Part shown: positions 2,388 through 52,186 of the stretch, piece by piece | Layout of the letters: each line of letters opens with the position of its first letter | Numbering within the stretch: position 1 is the stretch's first letter | Made by a program: the position numbers and the translations under genes | NCBI GenBank assembly: GCA_964512925.1 | Contig: CAZEKH010000001.1 | Span: 39,445-103,444 of the forward strand | DNA: 64,000 bases | Direction of reading: 5' to 3' | DNA from: an uncultured Candidatus Saccharibacteria bacterium | Lineage (GTDB): Bacteria > Patescibacteriota > Doudnabacteria > UBA920 | The notes under the pieces: generated by a model | Told to the model about the DNA's origin: nothing | Databases searched by the model: none | What the model saw: the letters and a program-made list of their open reading frames with translations, nothing else

Positions 2388-3278
2388 CTAAATCCAATTA
2401 CTCAAAATTTTTGCCAATTCTTTTTCTTTACCCGAAAAACTATGGTCAGCGCCTTTAAGTAAAACATAATCAAGATTGGGTCTTAAAGCTTTGAGTTTTT
2501 CCAAAGCCTCAGCTGGCGGCCCTGAAGTGAATTCGTCGTTCTCCCCATAAACCACTAGACTGGGTTTATGCAGCTTTTTAAAATGTCTAAGCAAAGGCTT
2601 TTTAGAAAGCTTGGCTTTGCCAAAAAGTTCCAAAAAAGGAAATACATTATAATCCCCGTCAGGGTTTGCGATGTCATAAAAACCCTGGTAGGAAAAAACA
2701 AATCCCTGAGACATTTCCCCTATCAACTCTTCGCCTTTGCCTTTTTTAATTTTATTTTTACTTTCTAAAAGAAGCTTCCAAAACTTGTTTTTACCCAGCA
2801 TTTGGCAGTATATACCCACGTCATCTCCCCCGCACAACAACATATATCTGGATATTGGATTTTTTGGGCGATAATAATTATACACGCATATTTTATTTGC
2901 CCCAGTGGAATGTCCTGCTAAATAAAACTTTTTATAGCCTTGGGTTTTTAAAAAACCAATTGCCGCGTCAATGTCAAAAATGCATTCCTTGATTTTTTCA
3001 TACGCCATACCGTACAATTTTTTTTCTATTTTCTTGCCTTTTTTTACTTTGATCTTCTGTATAACTCCGGCTCCGCGGTTGTTAAAAAACAAACTTGTAA
3101 CATCTTTTTTAAAAAGCTCGCCCGCATATATTCCATTTTCTTCCTGTTTGTAAAACACCGAAGAGTTACCGTTGCCGTGAAGCCAAATGCAAACCGCTCC
3201 CTTTTTCTTTGCCTCATACAAAAGCCCAGGCAAGGTTAGCCCGTCTTTGGTTTGAAATTGTACAAATTTTGGATGCAT
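2388..3278 (-). CDS. Alpha/beta hydrolase fold protein
   Basis: 296 aa. GHSTG nucleophile elbow (GXSXG), HGNGNS oxyanion-region motif, C-terminal GADHSF. Confidence 0.6.
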   Translation of the reverse strand: MHPKFVQFQTKDGLTLPGLLYEAKKKGAVCIWLHGNGNSSVFYKQEENGIYAGELFKKDVTSLFFNNRGAGVIQKIKVKKGKKIEKKLYGMAYEKIKECIFDIDAAIGFLKTQGYKKFYLAGHSTGANKICVYNYYRPKNPISRYMLLCGGDDVGIYCQMLGKNKFWKLLLESKNKIKKGKGEELIGEMSQGFVFSYQGFYDIANPDGDYNVFPFLELFGKAKLSKKPLLRHFKKLHKPSLVVYGENDEFTSGPPAEALEKLKALRPNLDYVLLKGADHSFSGKEKELAKILSNWI

Positions 3279-5044: not shown

Positions 5045-5244
5045 TACTTTTATTTACAAATAGATTCCCGCTTTCGCGGGAATGACAGCAAGTAAATATA
5101 TTATAAACAAAAACCCGATGCTTGTCAGCTGTTTTTCAAAACAAAAATTTAAAAAGATTCCTGTCAACTATGACACAATTGTGTTACGTTTGACAGGAAG
5201 CTTTTTATAAAAAATTATTTAGTCTGCCACATTAAAAACAAAAG

Positions 5245-5574: not shown

Positions 5575-6765
5575 TTATTTTTTCAGCTTGCTTCCCTTAC
5601 TTCCTCCCAAATTTTTCAGCACGCTGGATTCAAAGGTGTAGTTTATGCTTCTTTTGAGTTTATATTCTTCTTCCGCAAAAGCTATAAGCTTTTTTAAAAG
5701 CTCTGGCAGCTCAAGGCCCGAAGCTTTCCATAAGTGATGGTAAAGCGTTCCCGGAAGCGGGTTTATTTCGTTGGCAAAAAACTCTTTAGTTACTTTGTTG
5801 TACAAAAAGTCCACGCGCGCTATACCGCTGCATTCAACCGCTTTGTAAACCTCTTTTGCTGCTTCTTGGATTTTTTTTGTTATATCTTCCGGAAGACGCG
5901 CGGGTATGACCAGGCTATTTTGGGCTTTACCGGTTTGCCCTCCCCCGTCAGTAATGTATTTGTCTTCAAAATCAAACAGGTCTTTGGAAAATACCGACTC
6001 TTGCAAAAGCGAAGCAGTCAGCGTTTCGTTACCTATCACGCAGCAAGTTACGTCCATAAGGTTTTCCACCACCTCCTCTACAATAACTTTGTTGTCATAA
6101 AAAAAGGCCACTTCGAGTTTCTGCTCTAGCTCTTTCTCATCCTTGGCTTTTCCAATGCCGATGGACGAGCCAAGATGGACCGGCTTAACCATCGCAGGAA
6201 AATTTACTGATTTACTGATTCTCTGATTTACTGATTCTCTATTCTTCTCCCAATCTGATTTACTGAAAAACACATACTTCGTCGTAGGGATACCGGCTTT
6301 TTCAACCATGATCTTTGTCAGAGCTTTGTCCATAGAAATAGCGGACGCAGGAACGCCGCAACCAACATACGGAATTCCAAACATTTCAAAAAGCCCTTGC
6401 AAAGTGCCGTCTTCCCCATATGTACCGTGCATAGCCGGAAAAGCCAGATCTATAACAGTTTCTTTACCAAATAACCCTTTTTTCTTAAACACCATCTTCC
6501 CCACTGACTCCTGCATATCTAAGTAGTATTCGCAGAATTCATTTTGGGCTCTCTCCCCAAGTTTGGGGAGAGCTGGAGAGAGGTTGTTAGTTAAAAATTT
6601 CAAATCCCCCAACTCCTCGCCCAACATCCATTGGCCTTGCTTGGTTATGTAAACCGGTACAACTTTATGATTTAAAGCTTTCAGCCCGTTGATCACCAAA
6701 TTTCCGGTAATGATGGAAATATCATGCTCCACCGAGCCTGAGCCAAAAAATACTCCGATTGTCAT
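5575..6765 (-). CDS. ddl: D-alanine--D-alanine ligase
   Basis: MTIGVFFGSGSVEHDISIITG N-terminus, ATP-grasp layout, VKPVHLGSSIGIGKA motif. Contains an internal GC-rich palindrome and a period-8 tandem repeat. Confidence 0.9.
   Translation of the reverse strand: MTIGVFFGSGSVEHDISIITGNLVINGLKALNHKVVPVYITKQGQWMLGEELGDLKFLTNNLSPALPKLGERAQNEFCEYYLDMQESVGKMVFKKKGLFGKETVIDLAFPAMHGTYGEDGTLQGLFEMFGIPYVGCGVPASAISMDKALTKIMVEKAGIPTTKYVFFSKSDWEKNRESVNQRISKSVNFPAMVKPVHLGSSIGIGKAKDEKELEQKLEVAFFYDNKVIVEEVVENLMDVTCCVIGNETLTASLLQESVFSKDLFDFEDKYITDGGGQTGKAQNSLVIPARLPEDITKKIQEAAKEVYKAVECSGIARVDFLYNKVTKEFFANEINPLPGTLYHHLWKASGLELPELLKKLIAFAEEEYKLKRSINYTFESSVLKNLGGSKGSKLKK
6203..6262. repeat. Period-8 tandem repeat (TTTACTGA / TTCTCTGA units) inside ddl
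   Basis: tttactgatttactgattctctgatttactgattctct...gatttactga. Encodes SVNQRISKSVN. Confidence 0.6.
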
Positions 6766-6794: not shown

Positions 6795-7952
6795 TTACAA
6801 AACCACACGTTTTAAATATTGCGGAATCCTGATTGGAACACCATACCTGTTTGTCTCACAAATTTTAACAATATTTTCAATTGAGTTTAAATCTTCGTTT
6901 TTTGAACTGATTATCTGCACAGGATCTTCCAGCTCTACTTTTTTCAACATACTAACATCCACTGAACACATATTCATACTCACCTTGCCCACAATCGGAC
7001 AAAAGATTCCGCCGATCTTAAAAAAACCTTTGTTTGAAAGCCTGACATCAAGACCCTCGTTATAACCAACGGGTACAGTTGCCACTGTTGTTTTTTGTAA
7101 CACCTCGTAAGTATTATTGTAACCTATTTTTTCTCCAGGCAAAACTGTTTTAACAGAGGTAATAATTGAATACATTTCCAAAGCTGGTTTTAACTTAAGC
7201 TGGCTGAACTGAGATGTGTTAAAACCATACAGCCCAATCCCCAACCGTCCTACATTTGCATTTATATCGGGAAGAAAAAAAGCGCCAGCAGTATTTGAAG
7301 TATGAAAATATTTTACCTTGCTAAATTTATTTTTTATTTCGGAAACAACTCTGCCCCATTTCTGTATTTGTAATTTTGTGAAGACATCACTCTCCCCGTC
7401 CGCATCGGCAAAGTGACTGCACAAACCTTCTAAGATAAAATTTTTATTACTTTGAATTATTTGAGCCGCTTCAGCAATTTGATTTTCCAAAATTCCCTGC
7501 CTGTGCATCCCAGTATCTACTTTCAAATGAAAATAAATTTTTCTTTTTAAATTTGCATTTAAATTTTGTATTTGTTTCAAATCAATTAAAGCGTAACTAA
7601 CATTTTCCAAATTCGAATTAATTTGCTCCACAGTTGCGTAACCCAAAACCAAAATTTTGGTTTTTGTTCCTTCTCGCCTTAACACCAAGGCTTCGTAAAA
7701 ACTGTCTACGACAAAAAATGGACAACCTTCATCGTCTAAAATTTTTCCTACTTCTTTCAAGCCGTGGCCATAGGCGTTACTTTTTAAAACCGGAGCAAAA
7801 GAAACCTTTGGGTAAGCACTTCTAAAAATTTCCAGGTTGTGCAAAATCGCATCTTTAAAAATCCGTACTTCTATGAGCGGCTGGTAATCATTTCTGAACA
7901 ACTTTGATATTTGATTCGCCGACTGACGAATAAATTTTGATATATAGAGCAT
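6795..7952 (-). CDS. alr: Alanine racemase
   Basis: PLP-binding motif VLKSNAYGHG near the N-terminus. 385 aa. Located between murF and ddl. Confidence 0.9.
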   Translation of the reverse strand: MLYISKFIRQSANQISKLFRNDYQPLIEVRIFKDAILHNLEIFRSAYPKVSFAPVLKSNAYGHGLKEVGKILDDEGCPFFVVDSFYEALVLRREGTKTKILVLGYATVEQINSNLENVSYALIDLKQIQNLNANLKRKIYFHLKVDTGMHRQGILENQIAEAAQIIQSNKNFILEGLCSHFADADGESDVFTKLQIQKWGRVVSEIKNKFSKVKYFHTSNTAGAFFLPDINANVGRLGIGLYGFNTSQFSQLKLKPALEMYSIITSVKTVLPGEKIGYNNTYEVLQKTTVATVPVGYNEGLDVRLSNKGFFKIGGIFCPIVGKVSMNMCSVDVSMLKKVELEDPVQIISSKNEDLNSIENIVKICETNRYGVPIRIPQYLKRVVL

Positions 7953-7969
7953 TCTACCTCTCCCTTAAT

Positions 7970-7991
7970 CCCTCCCCTCTCAAGGGGAGGG
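7970..7991. promoter_or_regulatory. Family-A palindrome CCCTCCCCTCTCAAGGGGAGGG (SD-containing hairpin) upstream of the alr start
   Basis: Perfect pyrimidine/purine hairpin. On the minus strand its purine arm plus AAGGGAGAGG lies 7-17 nt before the alr ATG. Confidence 0.5.
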
Positions 7992-8062
7992 TATGGGTGG
8001 GCTTTAAATCTTTAAATTCTCGCAAAGTGAGATCACGCTCTGCGTGACATTAAATCTTAAAT

Positions 8063-9544
<1,482 letters not shown>

Positions 9545-9554
9545 ATTTTTTTAT

Positions 9555-9595
9555 CCCCTCCTTTCTAAGGAGGGGTGTCCCGATCTGATCGGGAC
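9555..9595. promoter_or_regulatory. Two adjacent palindromes (CCCCTCCTTTCTAAGGAGGGG and GTCCCGATCTGATCGGGAC) in the murF 5' leader
   Basis: On the minus strand, AGGAGGGG lies 10 nt upstream of the murF ATG. Family-A hairpin. Confidence 0.5.
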
Positions 9596-9610
9596 GGGGT
9601 GGTTAAAGCC

Positions 9611-9958
9611 TCACAAATTTTTCTTTATCTCTTGAATCACACCTTCTAGATTAATTATTACATACTGGCTCTTTAACCTTAAAACTTTTATGCCGACTGA
9701 ATGCAAAAACTCATCCTTTTCTCTATCTTTCTTAAATTTGTCCGAACTATTGTGACTTGCCCCATCGAGCTCTACAGCCAACTTTATCTCAGGACAATAA
9801 AAATCCAAAATATAATCCCCAACACTGTGTTGTCTCCTAAATTTTCTTCCCAAATTTTTACTTTTTAAACAATTCCACAAACGGGCTTCGGCTGGTGTTA
9901 GGGATTTTCTTAATTTTTTTCTAATGTCTTTTAATTCCGGCTTATTATTTAAAAGCAT
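9611..9958 (-). CDS. DUF559 endonuclease-domain protein (Vsr-like fold)
   Basis: 115 aa. LTPAEARLWNCLK...FRRQHSVGDYILDFYCPEIKLAVELDG is typical of DUF559. Confidence 0.75.
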   Translation of the reverse strand: MLLNNKPELKDIRKKLRKSLTPAEARLWNCLKSKNLGRKFRRQHSVGDYILDFYCPEIKLAVELDGASHNSSDKFKKDREKDEFLHSVGIKVLRLKSQYVIINLEGVIQEIKKNL

Positions 9959-9994
9959 AAAACAACCACTCCACCCTGTCGGGTCCCCCTCTTC

Positions 9995-10795
9995 TTACAA
10001 AGGAGAGGATAAAAATTCCTTTAAAGTCTTTACAAACTCCTCTGGTTGGTCTAAGAAACTAAAATGCCCTGAGTTCTGAAGAATTTTGAATTTTGAATTT
10101 TGAATTAAGGAATGCATTTTTTCACCAAACTCAACCGGGGTGTCTTTGTCGTTCTCACCCCAAACCAACAGTGTAGGAATTTTTATTTGTTTTAAGTCCT
10201 CGGTTAAATCTTCCTGTGTTACATTTATAAAAGTTTCCCGAAGTTCCGGCGTTGCCAAATAGTCTTCTGCTCCAATCGTCTTATAAATACTCTTCCGTAA
10301 ACCCTGCATAAATTTTGGTTTAAAAACAGGTCTTGCTATTTTTGCAACAAAACCATAAACACTTTTTTTTGATCCACTCACAGCAAATCCCGCTGCATCT
10401 ACCAAAACCAGTTTTGTCAGCCTTCCGCGTAATTCCGCGTTACCTTCTGCATAAGTCCGCGTTGTTTTAATAGCCACTCTCCCCCCAAAACTATGCCCCA
10501 CCAACACAACATTTTTAAGTTCTAACTTTTCTAAAAAACCTTTTACTAATTCTGCATAATCCCCCACTGTCCAAGAAGTCTTTGGCGCAGGCGAACCACC
10601 AAATCCAGGAAGGTCAACAGTGTAACAACTGATTTGCTGATTGACTGATGCACTGATTAACACACTAGCTATCCGAGCCCACACTTCTTTATTGCTCCTC
10701 CAGCCATGCAAAAACACAACAGACACTTCACTATCCCCTGTTCCAAATTGTTTATATGATAATAAATTTTTTTCCACCACAATTTGCTGATTCAT
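9995..10795 (-). CDS. Alpha/beta hydrolase
   Basis: VVLVGHSFGGRVA nucleophile elbow, FLHGW oxyanion region. 266 aa. Contains in-frame period-8 and period-7 DNA repeats. Confidence 0.7.
   Translation of the reverse strand: MNQQIVVEKNLLSYKQFGTGDSEVSVVFLHGWRSNKEVWARIASVLISASVNQQISCYTVDLPGFGGSPAPKTSWTVGDYAELVKGFLEKLELKNVVLVGHSFGGRVAIKTTRTYAEGNAELRGRLTKLVLVDAAGFAVSGSKKSVYGFVAKIARPVFKPKFMQGLRKSIYKTIGAEDYLATPELRETFINVTQEDLTEDLKQIKIPTLLVWGENDKDTPVEFGEKMHSLIQNSKFKILQNSGHFSFLDQPEEFVKTLKEFLSSPL
10629..10658. repeat. Period-8 CTGATT-based repeat inside the alpha/beta hydrolase gene
   Basis: ctgatttgctgattgactgatgcactgatt. Encodes SASVNQQIS. Confidence 0.5.
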
Positions 10796-14878: not shown

Positions 14879-15445
14879 ATGTCAGACTATACACGTAATC
14901 CGGACGAACTTTACGAGCCCCAAGCCCCCGCCAAAACAAAACCAATGGAGCGCAATCCTACTGCGCAAGAGGTCACAGAAGCATTAATCAGCGTCGAAAT
15001 AGCGAGTTTAGCTGATGAATACGACAATCCAAGATCCCAATCTTCAAAAGACTCCTCAGATTTTAAGGAAAAACCAAAACAAGGCGCTTGGTTTGAATAC
15101 ATTTGTAAGCGTGAAGAAATACAACCTGGCATGCTAGCAATCTGTCAAAAAAAAGATAACAGCGTAGGCATATTTGATTTTGGTGGGAAAGAATTCATTT
15201 TTCTTTATACCAATGACCAGGCCAAAATTTCAGATACCCAATTGCATAAATATATGGAAGCCATACAAAAAGCTGGATATACTGAACCTTTAACTGTCGT
15301 CCCAATAAGAGATTTAAAAATTTTTGACGATCTAAAAGCAGATGTGAATATTATGTTAGACGCTCCATTATCCAACAAACAGCAAATTAATATTTCTAAC
15401 TTAGAAGTAACATCAACAGATCTGAATGATAAAAGTCTGGAATGA
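14879..15445 (+). CDS. Hypothetical protein
   Basis: 188 aa, no recognisable motif. Followed by a bidirectional hairpin terminator at 15503-15534. Confidence 0.4.
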   Translation: MSDYTRNPDELYEPQAPAKTKPMERNPTAQEVTEALISVEIASLADEYDNPRSQSSKDSSDFKEKPKQGAWFEYICKREEIQPGMLAICQKKDNSVGIFDFGGKEFIFLYTNDQAKISDTQLHKYMEAIQKAGYTEPLTVVPIRDLKIFDDLKADVNIMLDAPLSNKQQINISNLEVTSTDLNDKSLE

Positions 15446-21350: not shown

Positions 21351-21507
21351 TGTCATCCCGGAATTTTTAAGGGCAGTTAAAAATATCCAGCCTGCCTGAA
21401 TGATTCAGTCAGGCGGGGATCCAGGGGTTAATCTTATATTCTATGTTTAAATATATAATCCTGGATCCCGGCTCTCTCCGCCTGCTGGCGGATCGGCCGG
21501 GATGACA
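21351..21507. repeat. Family-B composite palindromic element (MITE-like) with 11-bp terminal inverted repeats TGTCATCCCGG / CCGGGATGACA
   Basis: Nested inverted repeats: GGGGATCCAGGGG versus CCTGGATCCCGG, and GCCTGCCTGAATGATTCAGTCAGGCGG. Related copies at 31635-31712, 35257-35318, 44169-44198. Confidence 0.55.
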
Positions 21508-21667
21508 TAAAAACAGATAAACCTGTATTAAATTTTTTGCTCTCATTAAATTGAGCATAATCCAGATTTTTATGATCCATATTTTTTGCCTTGATTTTAT
21601 TGCAAAAATATAGTAAAGTTAATTGGTTAATTCAATTTATTTAATAATTTCTCCCACCTCCCCCTTA

Positions 21668-21688
21668 CCCCTCCTCGGGCAGGAGGGG
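21668..21688 (+). promoter_or_regulatory. Family-A SD-containing hairpin CCCCTCCTCGGGCAGGAGGGG in the infB leader
   Basis: The 3' arm AGGAGGGGAGG ends about 10 nt before the infB ATG at 21700. The 5' arm CCUCC is identical to the 16S anti-SD core. Confidence 0.55.
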
Positions 21689-21699
21689 AGGTGTCAAAA

Positions 21700-23628
21700 A
21701 TGGATTTATCTTCTTTGTCTTCCCAACTGAATATCTCCATCCAGGACTTGCGCTTAAAAGCTAAAGCGAAAGGTTTTGTCATATCCCCAAGAGCCAACAA
21801 GATAGACAACAGTTTGGCAAAACAGATTGCCGAAGCTTTGGCCCCGAAACCCATATCCCAGCCTGACGCTCCTAAAATCCCAAAGCTGGTTAAACTTCCT
21901 TCTTTCATAAAAGTCCGCGACTTTGCCGTAGCTTTAAACCTGCCGGTTGTAGAAGTAATAAAAACCCTGATCAAAAACGGCGTGATGGCAACTATCAACG
22001 AAGAAGTAGATTTTGAAACCGCCAGCATTGTGGCTTCTGACTTAGGTTTTGAAGTGGAAACCAAAGCCGACCAAACCCTGGCGGATTTTGGCGCGGGTTT
22101 TTTGCACGAAGTGGTTAAAGCGGAAAAAGAAGAAAATTTAAAACTAAGAGCTCCGATAGTCGCCATTATGGGACACGTTGACCACGGAAAGACCACACTC
22201 TTAGATACAATCCGCAAAACCAAGGTGGCAGAAGGGGAATCTGGCGGCATCACCCAGCATATCGGCGCCTACCGCGTAAAAAAAGACGGAAAATTCATCA
22301 CTTTTTTAGACACCCCGGGACACGAAGCATTTTCTGAAATGCGCGCCAGGGGAGCGAATGTGACTGACATTATTGTTTTAGTCGTCGCCGCAGACGACGG
22401 TGTAAAACCGCAAACTTTGGAAGTTATCAAGCGCGCGCAATTTGCAGGCACGCCGATGATAGTGGCTATAAACAAAATAGACAAACCGGAAGCCAATATA
22501 ATCCGCATCAAACAAGAGCTGGCCGGACAAAATGTTTTAACCGAAGAATGGGGCGGTAAAACCATTGCCTGTGAAATTTCCGCCAAACAAGGAACCGGTA
22601 TAGACAATTTGTTAGAAATGATTTTACTGACAGCTGAGGTGGAAAATTTGCGCTCAAACCCCCAGGGTAAAACTGTCGGGACTATCATTGAAGGACGGAT
22701 GAGTCACGGTAAGGGTCCAACTGCAACTGTCATAATTCAAAATGGAACTTTAAAAATAGGCGATGTTGTTGTGGCAGGCGCGGCTTTTGGCCGGGTCCGT
22801 TCTTTGGAAGACGAACACGGGAAAAAACTCAAAGAAGCCGGCCCGTCTGTGGCAGCGCAAATCTCCGGACTTTCCGACGTTCCGCAGGCCGGAGATATTT
22901 TGCAGGCGCCGCAAACTTTGGACGAAGCCAAACAAATTGCTTTAAACGCATTAAGAAAACTCAAGAGCCACAAACTTTCAGCCAAAAGCTCGCTCATCGG
23001 GGATACTTCCACCAAAACTCTTAATCTGGTTATCAAAGCGGATGTTGCGGGGTCTTTGGAAGCGATCAACGGCTCCATTGCCAAGCTAAAAAATGACGAA
23101 GTTAAAATCAATATTATTTCCGACGGCATCGGCGAGGTCAATGAAACAGATGTTTTGTCTGCAGCCAATGCCAAAGCCGCTGTCATAGCTTTCCGCGTCA
23201 AAGTAAACTCCAAAGCCGAAAGCCTGGCTAAACAAAAACAAGTTGTAGTGGACTTTTACGACGTGATATACGAACTGGTGGAAAATATTACTTCTGCGGT
23301 TATCAAACTCTTTACTCCGGAAACAGAAAAAATTTCCCACGGTAAGGCCAAAATCCTGGCAGTATTTTTGACGGAAAAAAACAATATGATCGTGGGCGGC
23401 AGAGTAGAAGAAGGGGAGTTAAAAAAGATCGGACACATCGCCATTTGGAGGGATGGGGTGGAAATAGGCAAAGCTGACATAACTGAGCTGCAGCAAAACA
23501 AACAAACCACCAAAGCCGTCCTGGCTGGCAGCGAGTTTGGCGTCAAACTCAAAACCCAAACCAAAATCAAAGAAGGCGATGTACTGGAAAGTTATGAAGA
23601 AAAGATTAAGATTAAAACATTAAATTAG
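21700..23628 (+). CDS. infB: Translation initiation factor IF-2
   Basis: G-domain [27 protein letters not shown]. Start could alternatively be GTG at 21691. Confidence 0.95.
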
Positions 23629-23686
23629 CGCTTAGGGATTAGCTTTTAGCTGTTAGGTTATATTTAAAATTTAAAATATATTACCC

Positions 23687-23727
23687 AAAACCCGCCCCGA
23701 TGTCTATCGGGGCGGGTTTTGTTTTTT
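23687..23727 (+). terminator. Rho-independent terminator after infB
   Basis: AAAACCCGCCCCGAT-GTCT-ATCGGGGCGGGTTTTGTTTTTT. Confidence 0.65.
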
Positions 23728-23830
23728 GACATTTTAAAAACTTTGCTTAAACTCTTGCCAAGATGCTAAAATATGTATAGAATATTTAGCTAAACTAAAT
23801 CAGTTGAATTATTAATAACCTCTCCCCATT

Positions 23831-23853
23831 CCCTCTCCAAGTATTGGAGAGGG
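23831..23853 (+). promoter_or_regulatory. Family-A hairpin CCCTCTCCAAGTATTGGAGAGGG in the rbfA leader
   Basis: The 3' arm GGAGAGGGAG lies about 15 nt upstream of the rbfA ATG. Confidence 0.45.
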
Positions 23854-23870: not shown

Positions 23871-24227
23871 ATGAAAAAAGTTATAAAAAAAGACACAAAC
23901 AGGATTGCTAAAGTAAATTCGCTGATAGAACACGCGCTTGGTCCGGTTTTACGCGAGTTTTTGGAAAACCACAAAGGCCTGGTTACCATCAGTAAAGTGG
24001 AAACCTCGCGAGATATGAAATGGACAAAAGTTTGGATTTCTATTTTTGGGGGCGATGACCAAAAAATCCTGGACTACCTGACAAGAAATATTTATGAGCT
24101 CCAAGGCGAACTTAATAAAAATTTTGCCACCAAAGTTATCCCGCGTTTACAATTTTTTCTGGACACTAGTCCCAGATATGCCGAGCATATAGACGAGGTG
24201 CTTAGGGAAATACACAAAGAAGCTTAG
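23871..24227 (+). CDS. rbfA: Ribosome-binding factor A
   Basis: KH-like RbfA pattern RIAKVNSLIEHALGPVLRE...ISKVETSRDMKWTKVWISIFG...IPRLQFFLD. The ORF-track start at 23844 is a TTG, and the in-frame ATG at 23871 is preferred. Confidence 0.85.
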   Translation: MKKVIKKDTNRIAKVNSLIEHALGPVLREFLENHKGLVTISKVETSRDMKWTKVWISIFGGDDQKILDYLTRNIYELQGELNKNFATKVIPRLQFFLDTSPRYAEHIDEVLREIHKEA

Positions 24228-28743: not shown

Positions 28744-28812
28744 TTAAATGTAATAAAAAATACTACAAATATTCACCCCTCCCCATTCGGCGAGCTCAGG
28801 GCAGGCTCTAAC

Positions 28813-28832
28813 CCTCCCCCTCAAGGGGAGGG
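28813..28832. repeat. Family-A palindrome CCCTCCCCCTCAAGGGGAGGG (near-identical to the copy at 7970)
   Basis: Perfect hairpin, not adjacent to a start codon. Confidence 0.45.
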
Positions 28833-28879
28833 AAAATATAAGGAATGACAGATAAAATTTTACAAATAACTCACCCCAT

Positions 28880-28903
28880 CCCTCTCTTTGAAAAAGAGAG
28901 GGG
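28880..28903 (+). promoter_or_regulatory. Family-A hairpin CCCTCTCTTTGAAAAAGAGAGGG in the leader of the RNHCP gene
   Basis: The 3' arm GAGAGGGGG ends 7 nt before the ATG at 28910. Confidence 0.5.
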
Positions 28904-28909
28904 GTTAAT

Positions 28910-29221
28910 ATGACATTCACTAAAAAAACTGAAAATTTCACTTGTAAACACTGCGGACACAAAGTAAAAGGCAACGGCTTTACTAACCATTGTCCAAAAT
29001 GTTTGTATTCCCGCCACGTGGATGTTTGGCCCGGGGATAGGAAAGAAGAATGTGGGGGACTGATGGAGCCTGTGGGGATGGAGCTAAAAAACGAAAAATA
29101 TATTTTAACTCACAGGTGCCTGGTTTGCGGCAAAGAAACCCACTGCAAAGCCAGCAACAATGACAGCATTGACGCCCTGACAAAGCTCTCAGAGAAGCTT
29201 GTCAAAAAAACATTTTTTTGA
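28910..29221 (+). CDS. RNHCP-domain zinc-ribbon protein
   Basis: FTCKHCGHKV...GFTNHCPKCLYSRHVD...CLVCGKETHC. The RNHCP motif is present as TNHCP. Confidence 0.55.
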   Translation: MTFTKKTENFTCKHCGHKVKGNGFTNHCPKCLYSRHVDVWPGDRKEECGGLMEPVGMELKNEKYILTHRCLVCGKETHCKASNNDSIDALTKLSEKLVKKTFF

Positions 29222-31457: not shown

Positions 31458-31481
31458 AAACCCCCGCCAAAGCGGGGGTTT
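31458..31481 (+). terminator. Terminator AAACCCCCGCC-AA-AGCGGGGGTTT
   Basis: Perfect 10-bp GC stem right after the stop codon. Confidence 0.6.
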
Positions 31482-31526
31482 AAAGTTGCCAAACACCGAA
31501 ATTTTGTTTAAAATTATATGGTTATT

Positions 31527-31601
31527 GGCGCGATGGTGAAGCAGTAACACTGCGGTCTGCAAAACCGCCACGCGTGGGTGCAAATCCCACTCGCGCCTCC
31601 A
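31527..31601 (+). tRNA. tRNA-Cys (anticodon GCA)
   Basis: GGCGCGATGGTGAAGCAGTAACACTGCGGTCTGCAAAACCGCCACGCGTGGGTGCAAATCCCACTCGCGCCTCCA. Discriminator U73. Confidence 0.85.
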
Positions 31602-31628
31602 ATAAATAAGAGTCTCAACGAGGTTTAA

Positions 31629-31732
31629 GGTCTGTCATCCCTTCGGGAGATCCCCCGTAAGGGGGACAAAACCGCCACGCGTGGGTGCCATCCCTCCGGG
31701 AGATGTAAACACAAATCCCACTCGCGCCTCCA
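31629..31732 (+). pseudogene. Partial tRNA-Cys 3' duplicate interrupted by two family-B-related hairpin insertions
   Basis: GGTCTG [TCATCCCTTCGGGAGATCCCCCGTAAGGGGGAC] AAAACCGCCACGCGTGGGTGC [CATCCCTCCGGGAGATGTAAACAC] AAATCCCACTCGCGCCTCCA. Outside the brackets it is identical to nt 33-75 of the intact tRNA-Cys. Confidence 0.55.
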
Positions 31733-31807
31733 CTGCTTCGTCCGCCTAGGGCGGACTACGCAGTGCAAGCAAAAAAATCTTTAACATTATAAAAACATTA
31801 CATACCT

Positions 31808-33986: not shown

Positions 33987-34006
33987 GTAATTCACAGTTT
34001 GAAGAT

Positions 34007-35256: not shown

Positions 35257-35318
35257 TGTCATCCCGGCCTTGCTTGCCCGCCGTAGCCTTGGCGAAGGTG
35301 GAAGCCGGGATCCGGGGT
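35257..35318. repeat. Family-B element (TGTCATCCCGGCC ... GGAAGCCGGGATCCGGGG) in the rpsA 5' leader
   Basis: Shares the GTCATCCCGG / CCGGGATCC arms with 21351-21507. Confidence 0.5.
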
Positions 35319-41238: not shown

Positions 41239-41274
41239 AAAAAACCTCTCCCCAAGTAAGGGGATAGGTTTTTT
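41239..41274. repeat. Family-A hairpin AAAAAACCTCTCCCCAAGTAAGGGGATAGGTTTTTT
   Basis: Palindrome flanked by complementary A-run and T-run. Could act as a bidirectional terminator. Confidence 0.45.
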
Positions 41275-46525: not shown

Positions 46526-46774
46526 CAACTGGACATAATTTTTTTTAAACAGTATAATTTTTCTACAATTCTTTTGAATTGAAACTAATCATTCGTTTTG
46601 CTAAACAAAACGAAAAGAAAGGTAAAAACAATGTATTTATTTGAAGACAAACCCATAGCTGATGATATGACTGACGCGGGCTCTGCTGACGACACTGCGG
46701 CGGATGAAACAACAGAAGAAAAAAAAGATGAAGAAACTTCAGAAATGTAATTTTTGATCTAATCATAAATTACA

Positions 46775-46804
46775 AAAATCTCCCCGATATATTGGGGAGA
46801 TTTT
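46775..46804. terminator. Family-A palindrome AAAATCTCCCC-GATATATT-GGGGAGATTTT, bidirectional terminator after tyrS
   Basis: Perfect stem with flanking A-run and T-run. Confidence 0.55.
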
Positions 46805-52154: not shown

Positions 52155-52186
52155 AACCCTTCAGCTGCTGAAGGGTTTTTTTATAA
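52154..52186. terminator. Bidirectional terminator AAACCCTTCAGC-TGC-TGAAGGGTTT
   Basis: Perfect 11-bp stem between convergent genes. Confidence 0.6.

Follow-up and report, generated by a model that had tools for sequence, protein, structure and literature searches.

The 64-kb stretch of contig CAZEKH010000001.1 analysed here (hereafter the window) contains ten short hairpins, each formed from a pyrimidine-rich and a purine-rich arm, one of them lying directly upstream of infB at position 21668. Eight of the ten sites are probably diverged intrastrand-triplex repeats of the BoxC/PIT/TMECO type (PIT standing for potential intrastrand triplex), the resemblance of their purine arms to Shine-Dalgarno (SD) sequences being most probably a by-product rather than the mark of a dedicated switch. 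Judged by their sequences, these sites belong to a known family of three-block repeats, for which the host phylum is new; any action they have would be at the level of DNA, and their likeness to SD sequences would be incidental. The window has a GC content of ~0.40, and its IF2 is 62-73% identical to those of thirteen Doudnabacteria/Patescibacteria contigs from metagenome-assembled genomes (L001-L013); on these sequence grounds the host belongs to the candidate phyla radiation, near Candidatus Doudnabacteria. Gene contexts were checked with Pfam and homologues. A scan of the whole window with Rfam families at the gathering score detected only 10 tRNAs, and nothing at any element site, whilst a search of the literature on SD usage in Patescibacteria and on dispersed anti-SD hairpins found nothing relevant.

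A first-pass annotation had described the ten hairpins as a family in which the 3' arm supplies the SD sequence of the downstream gene, and the inverted repeat of pyrimidine arm, loop and purine arm is indeed present at all ten sites. The stems had been called perfect, which is true of those at 7970, 9555, 21668, 28812 and 28880 (8-10 bp) but not of that at 9985, an imperfect stem of 7 bp with one G.U pair in RNA; those at 6551 and 23831 are of 8-9 bp. The motif CCTCC-N3-12-GGAGG occurs four times in the window against 0.24 expected, a count reached in none of 100 shuffles, and there are eight perfect C-rich hairpins of pyrimidine-to-purine polarity (Y>R) versus none of the G-rich, R>Y type. 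As RNA, the structures are predicted to be highly stable, the murF-proximal hairpin within ddl having an energy of -17.2 kcal/mol when folded by itself and the folds of 70-146 nt element contexts ranging from -20 to -42 kcal/mol. Since the two strands of a Y-loop-R palindrome have the same reading, the orientation of the hairpin relative to a gene is uninformative.

The polarity of an element is instead given solely by a third, mirror-symmetric block present in each copy, which was overlooked when the hairpins were annotated. At eight of the ten sites the C-rich strand carries a mirror image of the pyrimidine arm, the pyrimidine arm itself, a loop and the purine arm; the upstream pyrimidine tract mirrors the 5' arm and does not provide the 3' arm with a further complement. 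This is seen, for instance, in CCTCTCCC / CCCTCTCC / GGAGAGGG at 23831, CTCACCCC / CCCTCTC... / GAGAGGGG at 28880 and, on the minus strand at 9555, CCACCCC / ... / GGAGGGG. Covariation between the blocks was measured in 14 copies (eight from the window and six from relatives), scoring the mirror pattern with tolerance of A or T. Third blocks matched the pattern expected from their own arms with a mean of 0.965, compared with 0.829 when flanks were swapped (permutation p<5e-5), and the score as a direct, Watson-Crick repeat was 0.885; individual copies scored between 7/9 and 10/10 of the stem length. G lies opposite G, whilst opposite an A of the purine arm T and A are about equally common, such that approximately half of these positions carry the base permitted by the purine motif alone.

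This pairing rule fits a purine-motif triplex of DNA, but neither a triple helix of RNA nor an additional Watson-Crick arm. Two such candidates were rejected: a second 5' arm allowing alternative pairing is outscored by the mirror relation, decisively so in the asymmetric copies at 9555, 28880 and in the relative L005, and a pyrimidine-motif RNA triple helix is disfavoured by the A, rather than U/T, found on the sense strand at about half of the positions opposite A. The C-rich strand runs from the mirror block (H) through a short or hairpin-containing spacer to the pyrimidine arm (Y), the loop and the purine arm (R), and the opposite strand reads Y-R-RH, the arrangement of a class II purine motif. 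First loops are 3-7 nt long in all window copies; the second loop measures 2-5 nt at five sites (6551, 7970, 21668, 23831 and 28880) and 11-28 nt at 9555, 9985 and 28812, outside the TMECO-like length of ~3 nt, with a nested hairpin in two of the three.

The element flagged upstream of infB occupies 21653..21693 on the plus strand, ahead of the ATG at 21700. Its third block, CCCACCTCCCCC (21653-21664), is followed by TTA and by the hairpin CCCCTCCT-cgggc-AGGAGGGG (21668-21688), which has an AGGTG extension at 21689-21693; a promoter-like site that is conserved in relatives lies upstream at 21586-21614. Another promoter-like site, at 23755-23783, is found downstream of the infB terminator (23686-23721) and upstream of the rbfA element (23819..23853, plus strand), which consists of the third block CCTCTCCC(C) at 23819-23827, the trinucleotide ATT and the hairpin CCCTCTCC-aagtatt-GGAGAGGG at 23831-23853, the homology-supported start of rbfA being the ATG at 23871. 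The elements are located in predicted 5' untranslated regions (UTRs) or intercistronic spacers. Two further plus-strand copies precede the gene encoding an RNHCP protein. The more distant (28774..28832) has a long second loop, its third block CACCCCTCCCC (28774-28784) being separated by a 27-nt spacer with a small hairpin of its own from the hairpin CCCTCCCC-ctcaa-GGGGAGGG (28812-28832). A 22-codon upstream open reading frame (ORF) follows after 12 nt, and the distance to the RNHCP start is 77 nt. The nearer (28870..28904), with a third-block score of 10/10, comprises CTCACCCC (28870-28877), AT, the hairpin CCCTCTCTTT-gaa-AAAGAGAGGG (28880-28902) and a final GG, and is followed by the ATG at 28910. 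The small upstream ORF, MTDKILQITHPIPLFEKERGLI (28845-28913), runs through this second element and ends in an ATGA overlapping the RNHCP start, which may reflect either coupling or chance.

Three of the remaining elements are associated with a minus-strand operon. Between murF and alr, at 7957..8001 on the minus strand, the hairpin CCCTCCCCT-ctca-AGGGGAGGG (7970-7991) is flanked by GGGTGGG at 7995-8001 (CCCACCC on the sense strand) and by CCTCTCCC at 7957-7964, and the ATG of alr is at 7952; the only canonical G-quadruplex motif of the window lies inside this element, at 7984-8001. The spacer between the DUF559 gene and murF is filled by a minus-strand element at 9555..9602, composed of the hairpin CCCCTCCTT-tct-AAGGAGGGG (9555-9575), a nested hairpin, GTCCCGATCTGATCGGGAC (9577-9595), and the third block GGGGTGG (9596-9602), which scores 9/9 across a spacer of 20; murF begins with the ATG at 9544. 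The third of these elements, at 9966..10008, is oriented on the plus strand, opposite to the genes, and overlaps the stop codon of the hydrolase gene; its third block, CCACTCCACCC (9966-9976), reads GGGTGGAGTGG on the minus strand, and its imperfect hairpin is CCTCTTC-ttacaaa-GGAGAGG (9988-10008).

The slot between the hydrolase gene and murF is variable in its own right. In the window it contains the DUF559 endonuclease gene (9611-9958) between two triplex-motif elements, whilst in L083 (2147-2428) and L084 (7364-7654) the same place is taken by a GIY-YIG gene with GTCATTGCGAG/CTCGCAATGAC inverted repeats on either side, and the slot is empty in L087, which is 96-99% identical to L083. This locus looks like a hotspot for small endonuclease cassettes.

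The copy at 6551, which had been listed with the others, is a three-block element but does not precede a gene; it lies inside the coding sequence (CDS) of the D-Ala-D-Ala ligase gene ddl, at residues 61-72. It occupies 6551..6583 on the minus strand, with the hairpin CTCTCCCC-aagttt-GGGGAGAG (6551-6572) and third block GGAGAGAGG (6575-6583), and encodes ...NLSPALPKLGERA... in a variable surface loop. Two sites, by contrast, had been regarded as copies acting as terminators, and these do not belong to the family: AAAAAACCTCTCCCC-aagtaa-GGGGATAGGTTTTTT (41239..41274), which is absent from the output of the three-block finder, and AAAAATCTCCCC-gatatat-TGGGGAGATTTT (46774..46804; fold z = -5.9), which sits between the convergent genes of a small ORF and tyrS, are bidirectional hairpins of intrinsic-terminator type with an A-tract, a stem and a T-tract, and lack a third block. 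Genuine intrinsic terminators occur elsewhere in the window, for instance at 23686-23721, 31460-31485, 33990-34000 and 52155-52180. They are palindromes of an A-tract, C-rich arm, loop, G-rich arm and T-tract, bidirectional by design, and have the same C-first polarity as the triplex-motif hairpins.

The three-block architecture extends well beyond this lineage. Public metagenome contigs were scanned using the hairpin only as the pattern, CCCTCTCC-N3-7-GGAGAGGG, which gave 105 matches on 80 contigs with GC contents from 0.36 to 0.72. A third block matching at least seven of eight positions accompanied 90 of the 105, and lay within 6 nt in 71; where this block lies 5' of the hairpin it typically reads CCCTCACCCC, and where it lies 3', GGGGTGAGGG. 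Among 36 other, non-query Y>R hairpins on the same contigs, the match was 0.884 to their own flanks versus 0.746 to swapped flanks (p<5e-5), and the subtype with a long second loop was also found in other phyla (L112, L116, L127, L153 and L167). A 33-nt consensus copy taken from an environmental contig is present in 5409 of 5426 complete E. coli genomes, at a median of 18 places per genome, all of them unannotated. The repeat can also form clusters: the high-GC metagenome contig JADHEE010000890.1 has tandem arrays at 2531-3020 and 9055-9528, with eight copies spaced ~90-120 bp apart.

In E. coli this element is the one known as BoxC, PIT or TMECO, a class II purine motif of the form Y-R-reverse-Hoogsteen (Holder et al. 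2015, PMC4666352). Its TMECO consensus is 5'-CCCTCNCCC N3-6 GGGNGAGGG N3 GGGNGAGGG-3' with one mismatched triplet allowed, and its loops are short, the first of 3-6 nt and the second of ~3 nt, the ITxF search having used 1-6 nt (PMC4666352). The purine motif permits G.GC and A(T).AT triplets (PMC4666352), which explains the T-or-A rule of the third block. The single-stranded motif forms a triplex in vitro, and purine-motif triplexes do not form in RNA (PMC4666352). E. coli K-12 has 23 copies, all intergenic and without strand bias, at 10-310 nt from ORFs with no trend; TMECO has been tied to local genomic variability or instability, and no association of BoxC with a transposase is known (PMC4666352). 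The copies L003:10798, L083:5832 and L084:15032 in relatives conform to the strict consensus. Those of the window differ from it by 1-3 bases per block (e.g. CCCCTCCT/AGGAGGGG and CCCTCTCTTT/AAAGAGAGGG), and are hence best assigned to a wider class of G/C-rich triplex motifs rather than to TMECO proper.

Comparison with relatives reveals rapid gain and loss of these elements. The hairpin upstream of infB is absent from ten of the thirteen relatives, most of which have short leaders without an SD sequence; in L006-L008 the infB mRNA is probably leaderless, as only 9 nt separate the -10 box from the ATG, and leaderless mRNAs may thus occur in this clade. L004 has an independent copy (CCTCTCCTT/AAGGAGAGG) 8 nt before the infB ATG, and L005 one ~55 nt upstream of the gene. 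No element precedes rbfA in any of the relatives examined, none precedes murF or alr in L083, L084 or L087, and no SD sequence was found in the relatives upstream of the infB, rbfA, murF and alr orthologues, nor was conservation through compensatory changes detected upstream of infB or rbfA in these genomes. Seven of the eight window copies are intergenic, beside unrelated genes; the eighth, and three in relatives, lie in-frame within CDSs. The extra loop residues of ddl are missing from most homologues, whilst three lineages have differing three-block copies within the same ddl loop, and L083 and L087, the DNA of which is 96-99% identical, differ by the ddl element, the patch that carries it being of 81 nt versus 57 nt. 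Similarly, the fumarase gene of L084 (14711-16054) contains a consensus copy at 15032-15052, which adds nine residues in-frame, within TLTPSPSPEGRGW, relative to the L087 orthologue. Hence triplex-motif repeats can be tolerated in protein loops.

The statistics of position and SD usage cover the window only, with its 62 gene starts and seven intergenic three-block copies, and the anti-SD sequence of the host is assumed to be canonical, the 3' end of the 16S rRNA gene lying outside the window. The purine arm had been placed 7-15 nt before start codons, and this agrees with the distances at RNHCP (7 nt), murF (10 nt) and infB (11 nt), but at rbfA and alr the distance is 17 nt. The hairpin credited with providing the SD sequence of the DUF559 gene is 29 nt from that start; the SD-like tract 7 nt upstream of the ATG at 9958, GGGTGGAGTGG, is the third block on the minus strand. 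An enrichment just upstream of start codons is nonetheless evident in the window (5/7 copies, P<=0.002). Apart from the purine arm, nothing upstream of these genes resembles an SD sequence, and six of the ~12 SD-like sites in the window are supplied by the elements. For 50 of the 62 genes no such sequence occurs within 25 nt of the start, and the upstream regions are A/T-rich.

The annotation had proposed that the elements act as reusable riboregulators, either thermosensors or translational attenuators, hiding the downstream SD sequence and opening on a signal. The evidence agrees with it in part, since the SD-like arm is paired with the CCUCC arm in every predicted fold of the transcript, the elements are in predicted 5' UTRs or intercistronic spacers, and five of the seven intergenic copies end 4-18 nt before a start. 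However, temperature-dependent partition functions of the nearest-neighbour model predict 78-98% pairing of the hairpin arms over the range 10-90 °C. For the purine arm, the probability of being unpaired averages 0.01-0.10 between 10 and 37 °C and does not exceed 0.22 even at 90 °C; with more than 78% pairing up to 90 °C in the model, the hairpins could not serve as a physiological thermosensor. A dedicated regulator of any kind is also at odds with the BoxC/PIT/TMECO architecture, the absence of elements at orthologous sites where the genes have no SD sequence, the copies within CDSs, the 50 of 62 window genes lacking an SD sequence and the unrelated nature of the genes concerned (infB, rbfA, murF, alr, RNHCP and DUF559); it would leave the third block and its rule of A or T opposite A unexplained, and earlier work on the PIT elements of E. 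coli recorded neither promoter nor terminator activity, nor any influence on RNA polymerase (PMC4666352). This explanation therefore seems improbable. We consider it slightly less probable that these are ordinary RNA hairpins, functioning as factor-independent terminators or as REP-type stabilisers of intercistronic 3' ends: the stems are stable, three copies lie between co-directional genes of the hydrolase-DUF559-murF-alr operon and that at 9985 overlaps a stop codon, but none of the eight three-block copies has a T tract or a terminator-like call, whereas the genuine terminators of the window have A/T tracts, the third block and the coding insertions would go unexplained, and the lack of terminator activity in E. 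coli again applies (PMC4666352). Least likely of all appears to be a switch between G-quadruplex, hairpin and duplex, as which Kaplan et al. 2016 interpreted the same E. coli sequences (GGGAGAGGGTTAGGGTGAGGG) under the names HPG1/HPG2 (PMC5100583). The element at 7970 does carry GGGGAGGGTATGGGTGGG, a canonical four-tract motif, and the published proposal covers GGGAGAGGGTTAGGGTGAGGG; however, four tracts of at least three G are present in only one of the eight window copies, variants such as AAAGAGAGGG or AAGGAGGGG with a long second loop cannot form a standard G-quadruplex, and the position-wise covariation of third block and purine arm is predicted by the triplex or mirror relation, not by a quadruplex.

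Several observations nevertheless weigh against viewing the elements simply as triplex-motif repeats with an accidental SD-like arm. The concentration of five of the seven intergenic copies at 4-18 nt from a start compares with 0.5 expected if copies were uniform over intergenic bases (P<5e-5), or 1.2 if uniform over intergenic regions (P=0.002), and the C-rich strand is the sense strand in 12 of 14 copies of the clade (two-sided binomial ~0.01, the copies not all being independent). Neither bias is seen in the wider family: across the 80 metagenome contigs the orientation counts were 17 versus 22 and distances to starts ranged over 21-687 nt without preference, low-GC contigs being alike, although the gene calls there were crude longest ORFs and little reliance can be placed on the 42 'inside ORF' cases of high-GC contigs. 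As the biases are missing from both the wider family and E. coli, some selection or insertion preference tied to transcription or translation may exist in this lineage. The match of the window copies to the strict TMECO consensus is also imperfect, with 1-3 deviating bases per block, and in three of them the second loop is 11-28 nt long, whilst in E. coli no triplex signal was obtained from double-stranded DNA or from in vivo dimethyl sulphate footprinting (PMC4666352). It is hence possible, though unlikely, that elements which are triplex-motif repeats by origin, ancient and shared across phyla, have been domesticated as a portable 5' UTR or intercistronic module. Sense-oriented copies flush with starts would be retained because, in a compact genome that otherwise largely translates without SD sequences, they donate the sole SD-like tract, a stable hairpin at the 5' end or between cistrons, or both, and so raise translation or shield the mRNA. 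The enrichment at starts, the 12:2 strand bias, the six of ~12 SD-like sites derived from elements and the independent copy 8 nt before infB in L004 would all be consistent with this. Set against it, a closed stem of about -17 kcal/mol should hinder use of the SD sequence rather than help it, the placements are not conserved across relatives, and the biases are absent from the other 80 contigs, including those of low GC. Proximity to starts is moreover partly forced by the shortness of the spacers: those of relatives without elements, representing the state before insertion, are ~15-45 nt long, an element here often makes up most of its spacer, and a random landing in a 45-nt spacer would fall 4-18 nt from the start about one time in three.

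Under the triplex-repeat interpretation, which we prefer, the elements would be DNA-level repeats that spread or arise and persist wherever they are tolerated, which in a compact genome would mainly be the few tens of bases from a promoter or stop codon to the next start. Once transcribed, such a repeat would form a constitutively closed hairpin, the 3' arm of which happens to read GGAGG. As most genes here, and their orthologues in relatives, start without an SD sequence, this SD-like arm is probably a by-product; were translation or mRNA stability affected at all, the effect would be secondary, constitutive and unswitched.

BoxC/PIT elements have been known since the 1990s and occur in hundreds of bacterial genomes, the PIT elements of E. 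coli and other bacteria being reportedly the subject of work by Hoyne and Maher in 2000, and we know of no accepted function for them. The present data extend the family to an ultra-small candidate-phyla-radiation genome and document in-frame insertions into housekeeping enzymes, such that 'PSPxGEG'-type protein loops can stem from these repeats. Diverged copies in which all three blocks remain matched provide evidence that the near-identical copies of E. coli cannot give; if the elements have been domesticated, this covariation would be the first evolutionary evidence of a triplex-forming geometry maintained in vivo. There is also a warning for annotation, in that start-adjacent GGAGG hairpins in such genomes are likely to represent repeats, not ribosome-binding-site switches.

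Other repeats are present in the window. A second family of dispersed intergenic hairpins, CCGCC-N3-4-GGCGG, usually extended to TCCGCC...GGCGGA, is found at 21478, 25360, 31742, 36276 and 41068, and a longer repeat bounded by GTCATCCCGG ... CCGGGATGAC at 21352-21506, 35258-35310 and 44188, with a related copy after infB in L001 (73% IF2 identity). Another small palindrome, TTCCCGCTTTCGCGGGAATGAC at 5065, is of the 'GTCATTCCCGC' type. In the region 31527-31760, the tRNA-Cys gene (31527-31598) is followed by a partial duplicate of its own 3' half, broken by small GC-rich hairpins (GTCATCCCTTCGGGAGATCCCCCGTAAGGGGGA...).

Amongst known systems, the window copies most resemble BoxC/PIT/TMECO. They share the three consecutive blocks Y-R-RH, the second loop being short in five of the eight copies, and the G/C-rich pyrimidine/purine hairpin with a G-rich third block obeying the rule of G.G and A/T.A; they are likewise dispersed, mostly intergenic, more often upstream than downstream of ORFs and variably present among close strains. 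They differ in belonging to a Doudnabacteria-like candidate-phyla-radiation host of ~40% GC, in having diverged arms (CCCCTCCT, CCCTCCCC, CCCTCTCTTT and CTCTCCCC) with which the third block changes in step, and in the three copies whose second loop reaches 11-28 nt, in two of them with a nested hairpin. Some copies here are in-frame within genes, whereas those of TMECO in E. coli are 'always intergenic', and five of the seven intergenic window copies abut start codons, most of them being sense-oriented. The HPG1/HPG2 sequences are themselves BoxC sequences (GGGAGAGGG-TTA/CC-GGGTGAGGG, with a C-rich tract upstream), also intergenic between tandem genes (PMC5100583), but theirs is a different structural reading, as a quadruplex, and a canonical motif of that kind is found in only one window copy, that at 7970. 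With the SD-sequestering RNA thermometers ROSE and fourU, and with other leaders that occlude the ribosome-binding site, the elements share the pairing of an SD-like tract and a complementary pyrimidine tract shortly before a start. The stems of RNA thermometers are weak and mismatched, melt at 30-42 °C and are retained by particular genes across species, in contrast to the perfect G/C stems of 8-10 bp in the window, closed to 90 °C in silico and lacking conservation between orthologues. REP/BIME elements, and REPINs with their RAYT transposases, are similarly short, dispersed, GC-rich palindromes of spacers that can form stabilising hairpins in transcripts; the window elements have no GTAG-type conserved flank, their arms vary among copies of one genome and they possess the third block, which REPs do not. 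Finally, the Rickettsia palindromic elements (RPEs), which Ogata and colleagues reportedly described in 2000 as palindromic repeats lying in-frame within surface loops of housekeeping proteins, have a length of 100-150 bp and no pyrimidine/purine three-block design. The window elements are unrelated to them in sequence and far shorter, yet share with them the property of being short palindromic repeats tolerated in-frame, here by ddl in three lineages and by fumarase in one.

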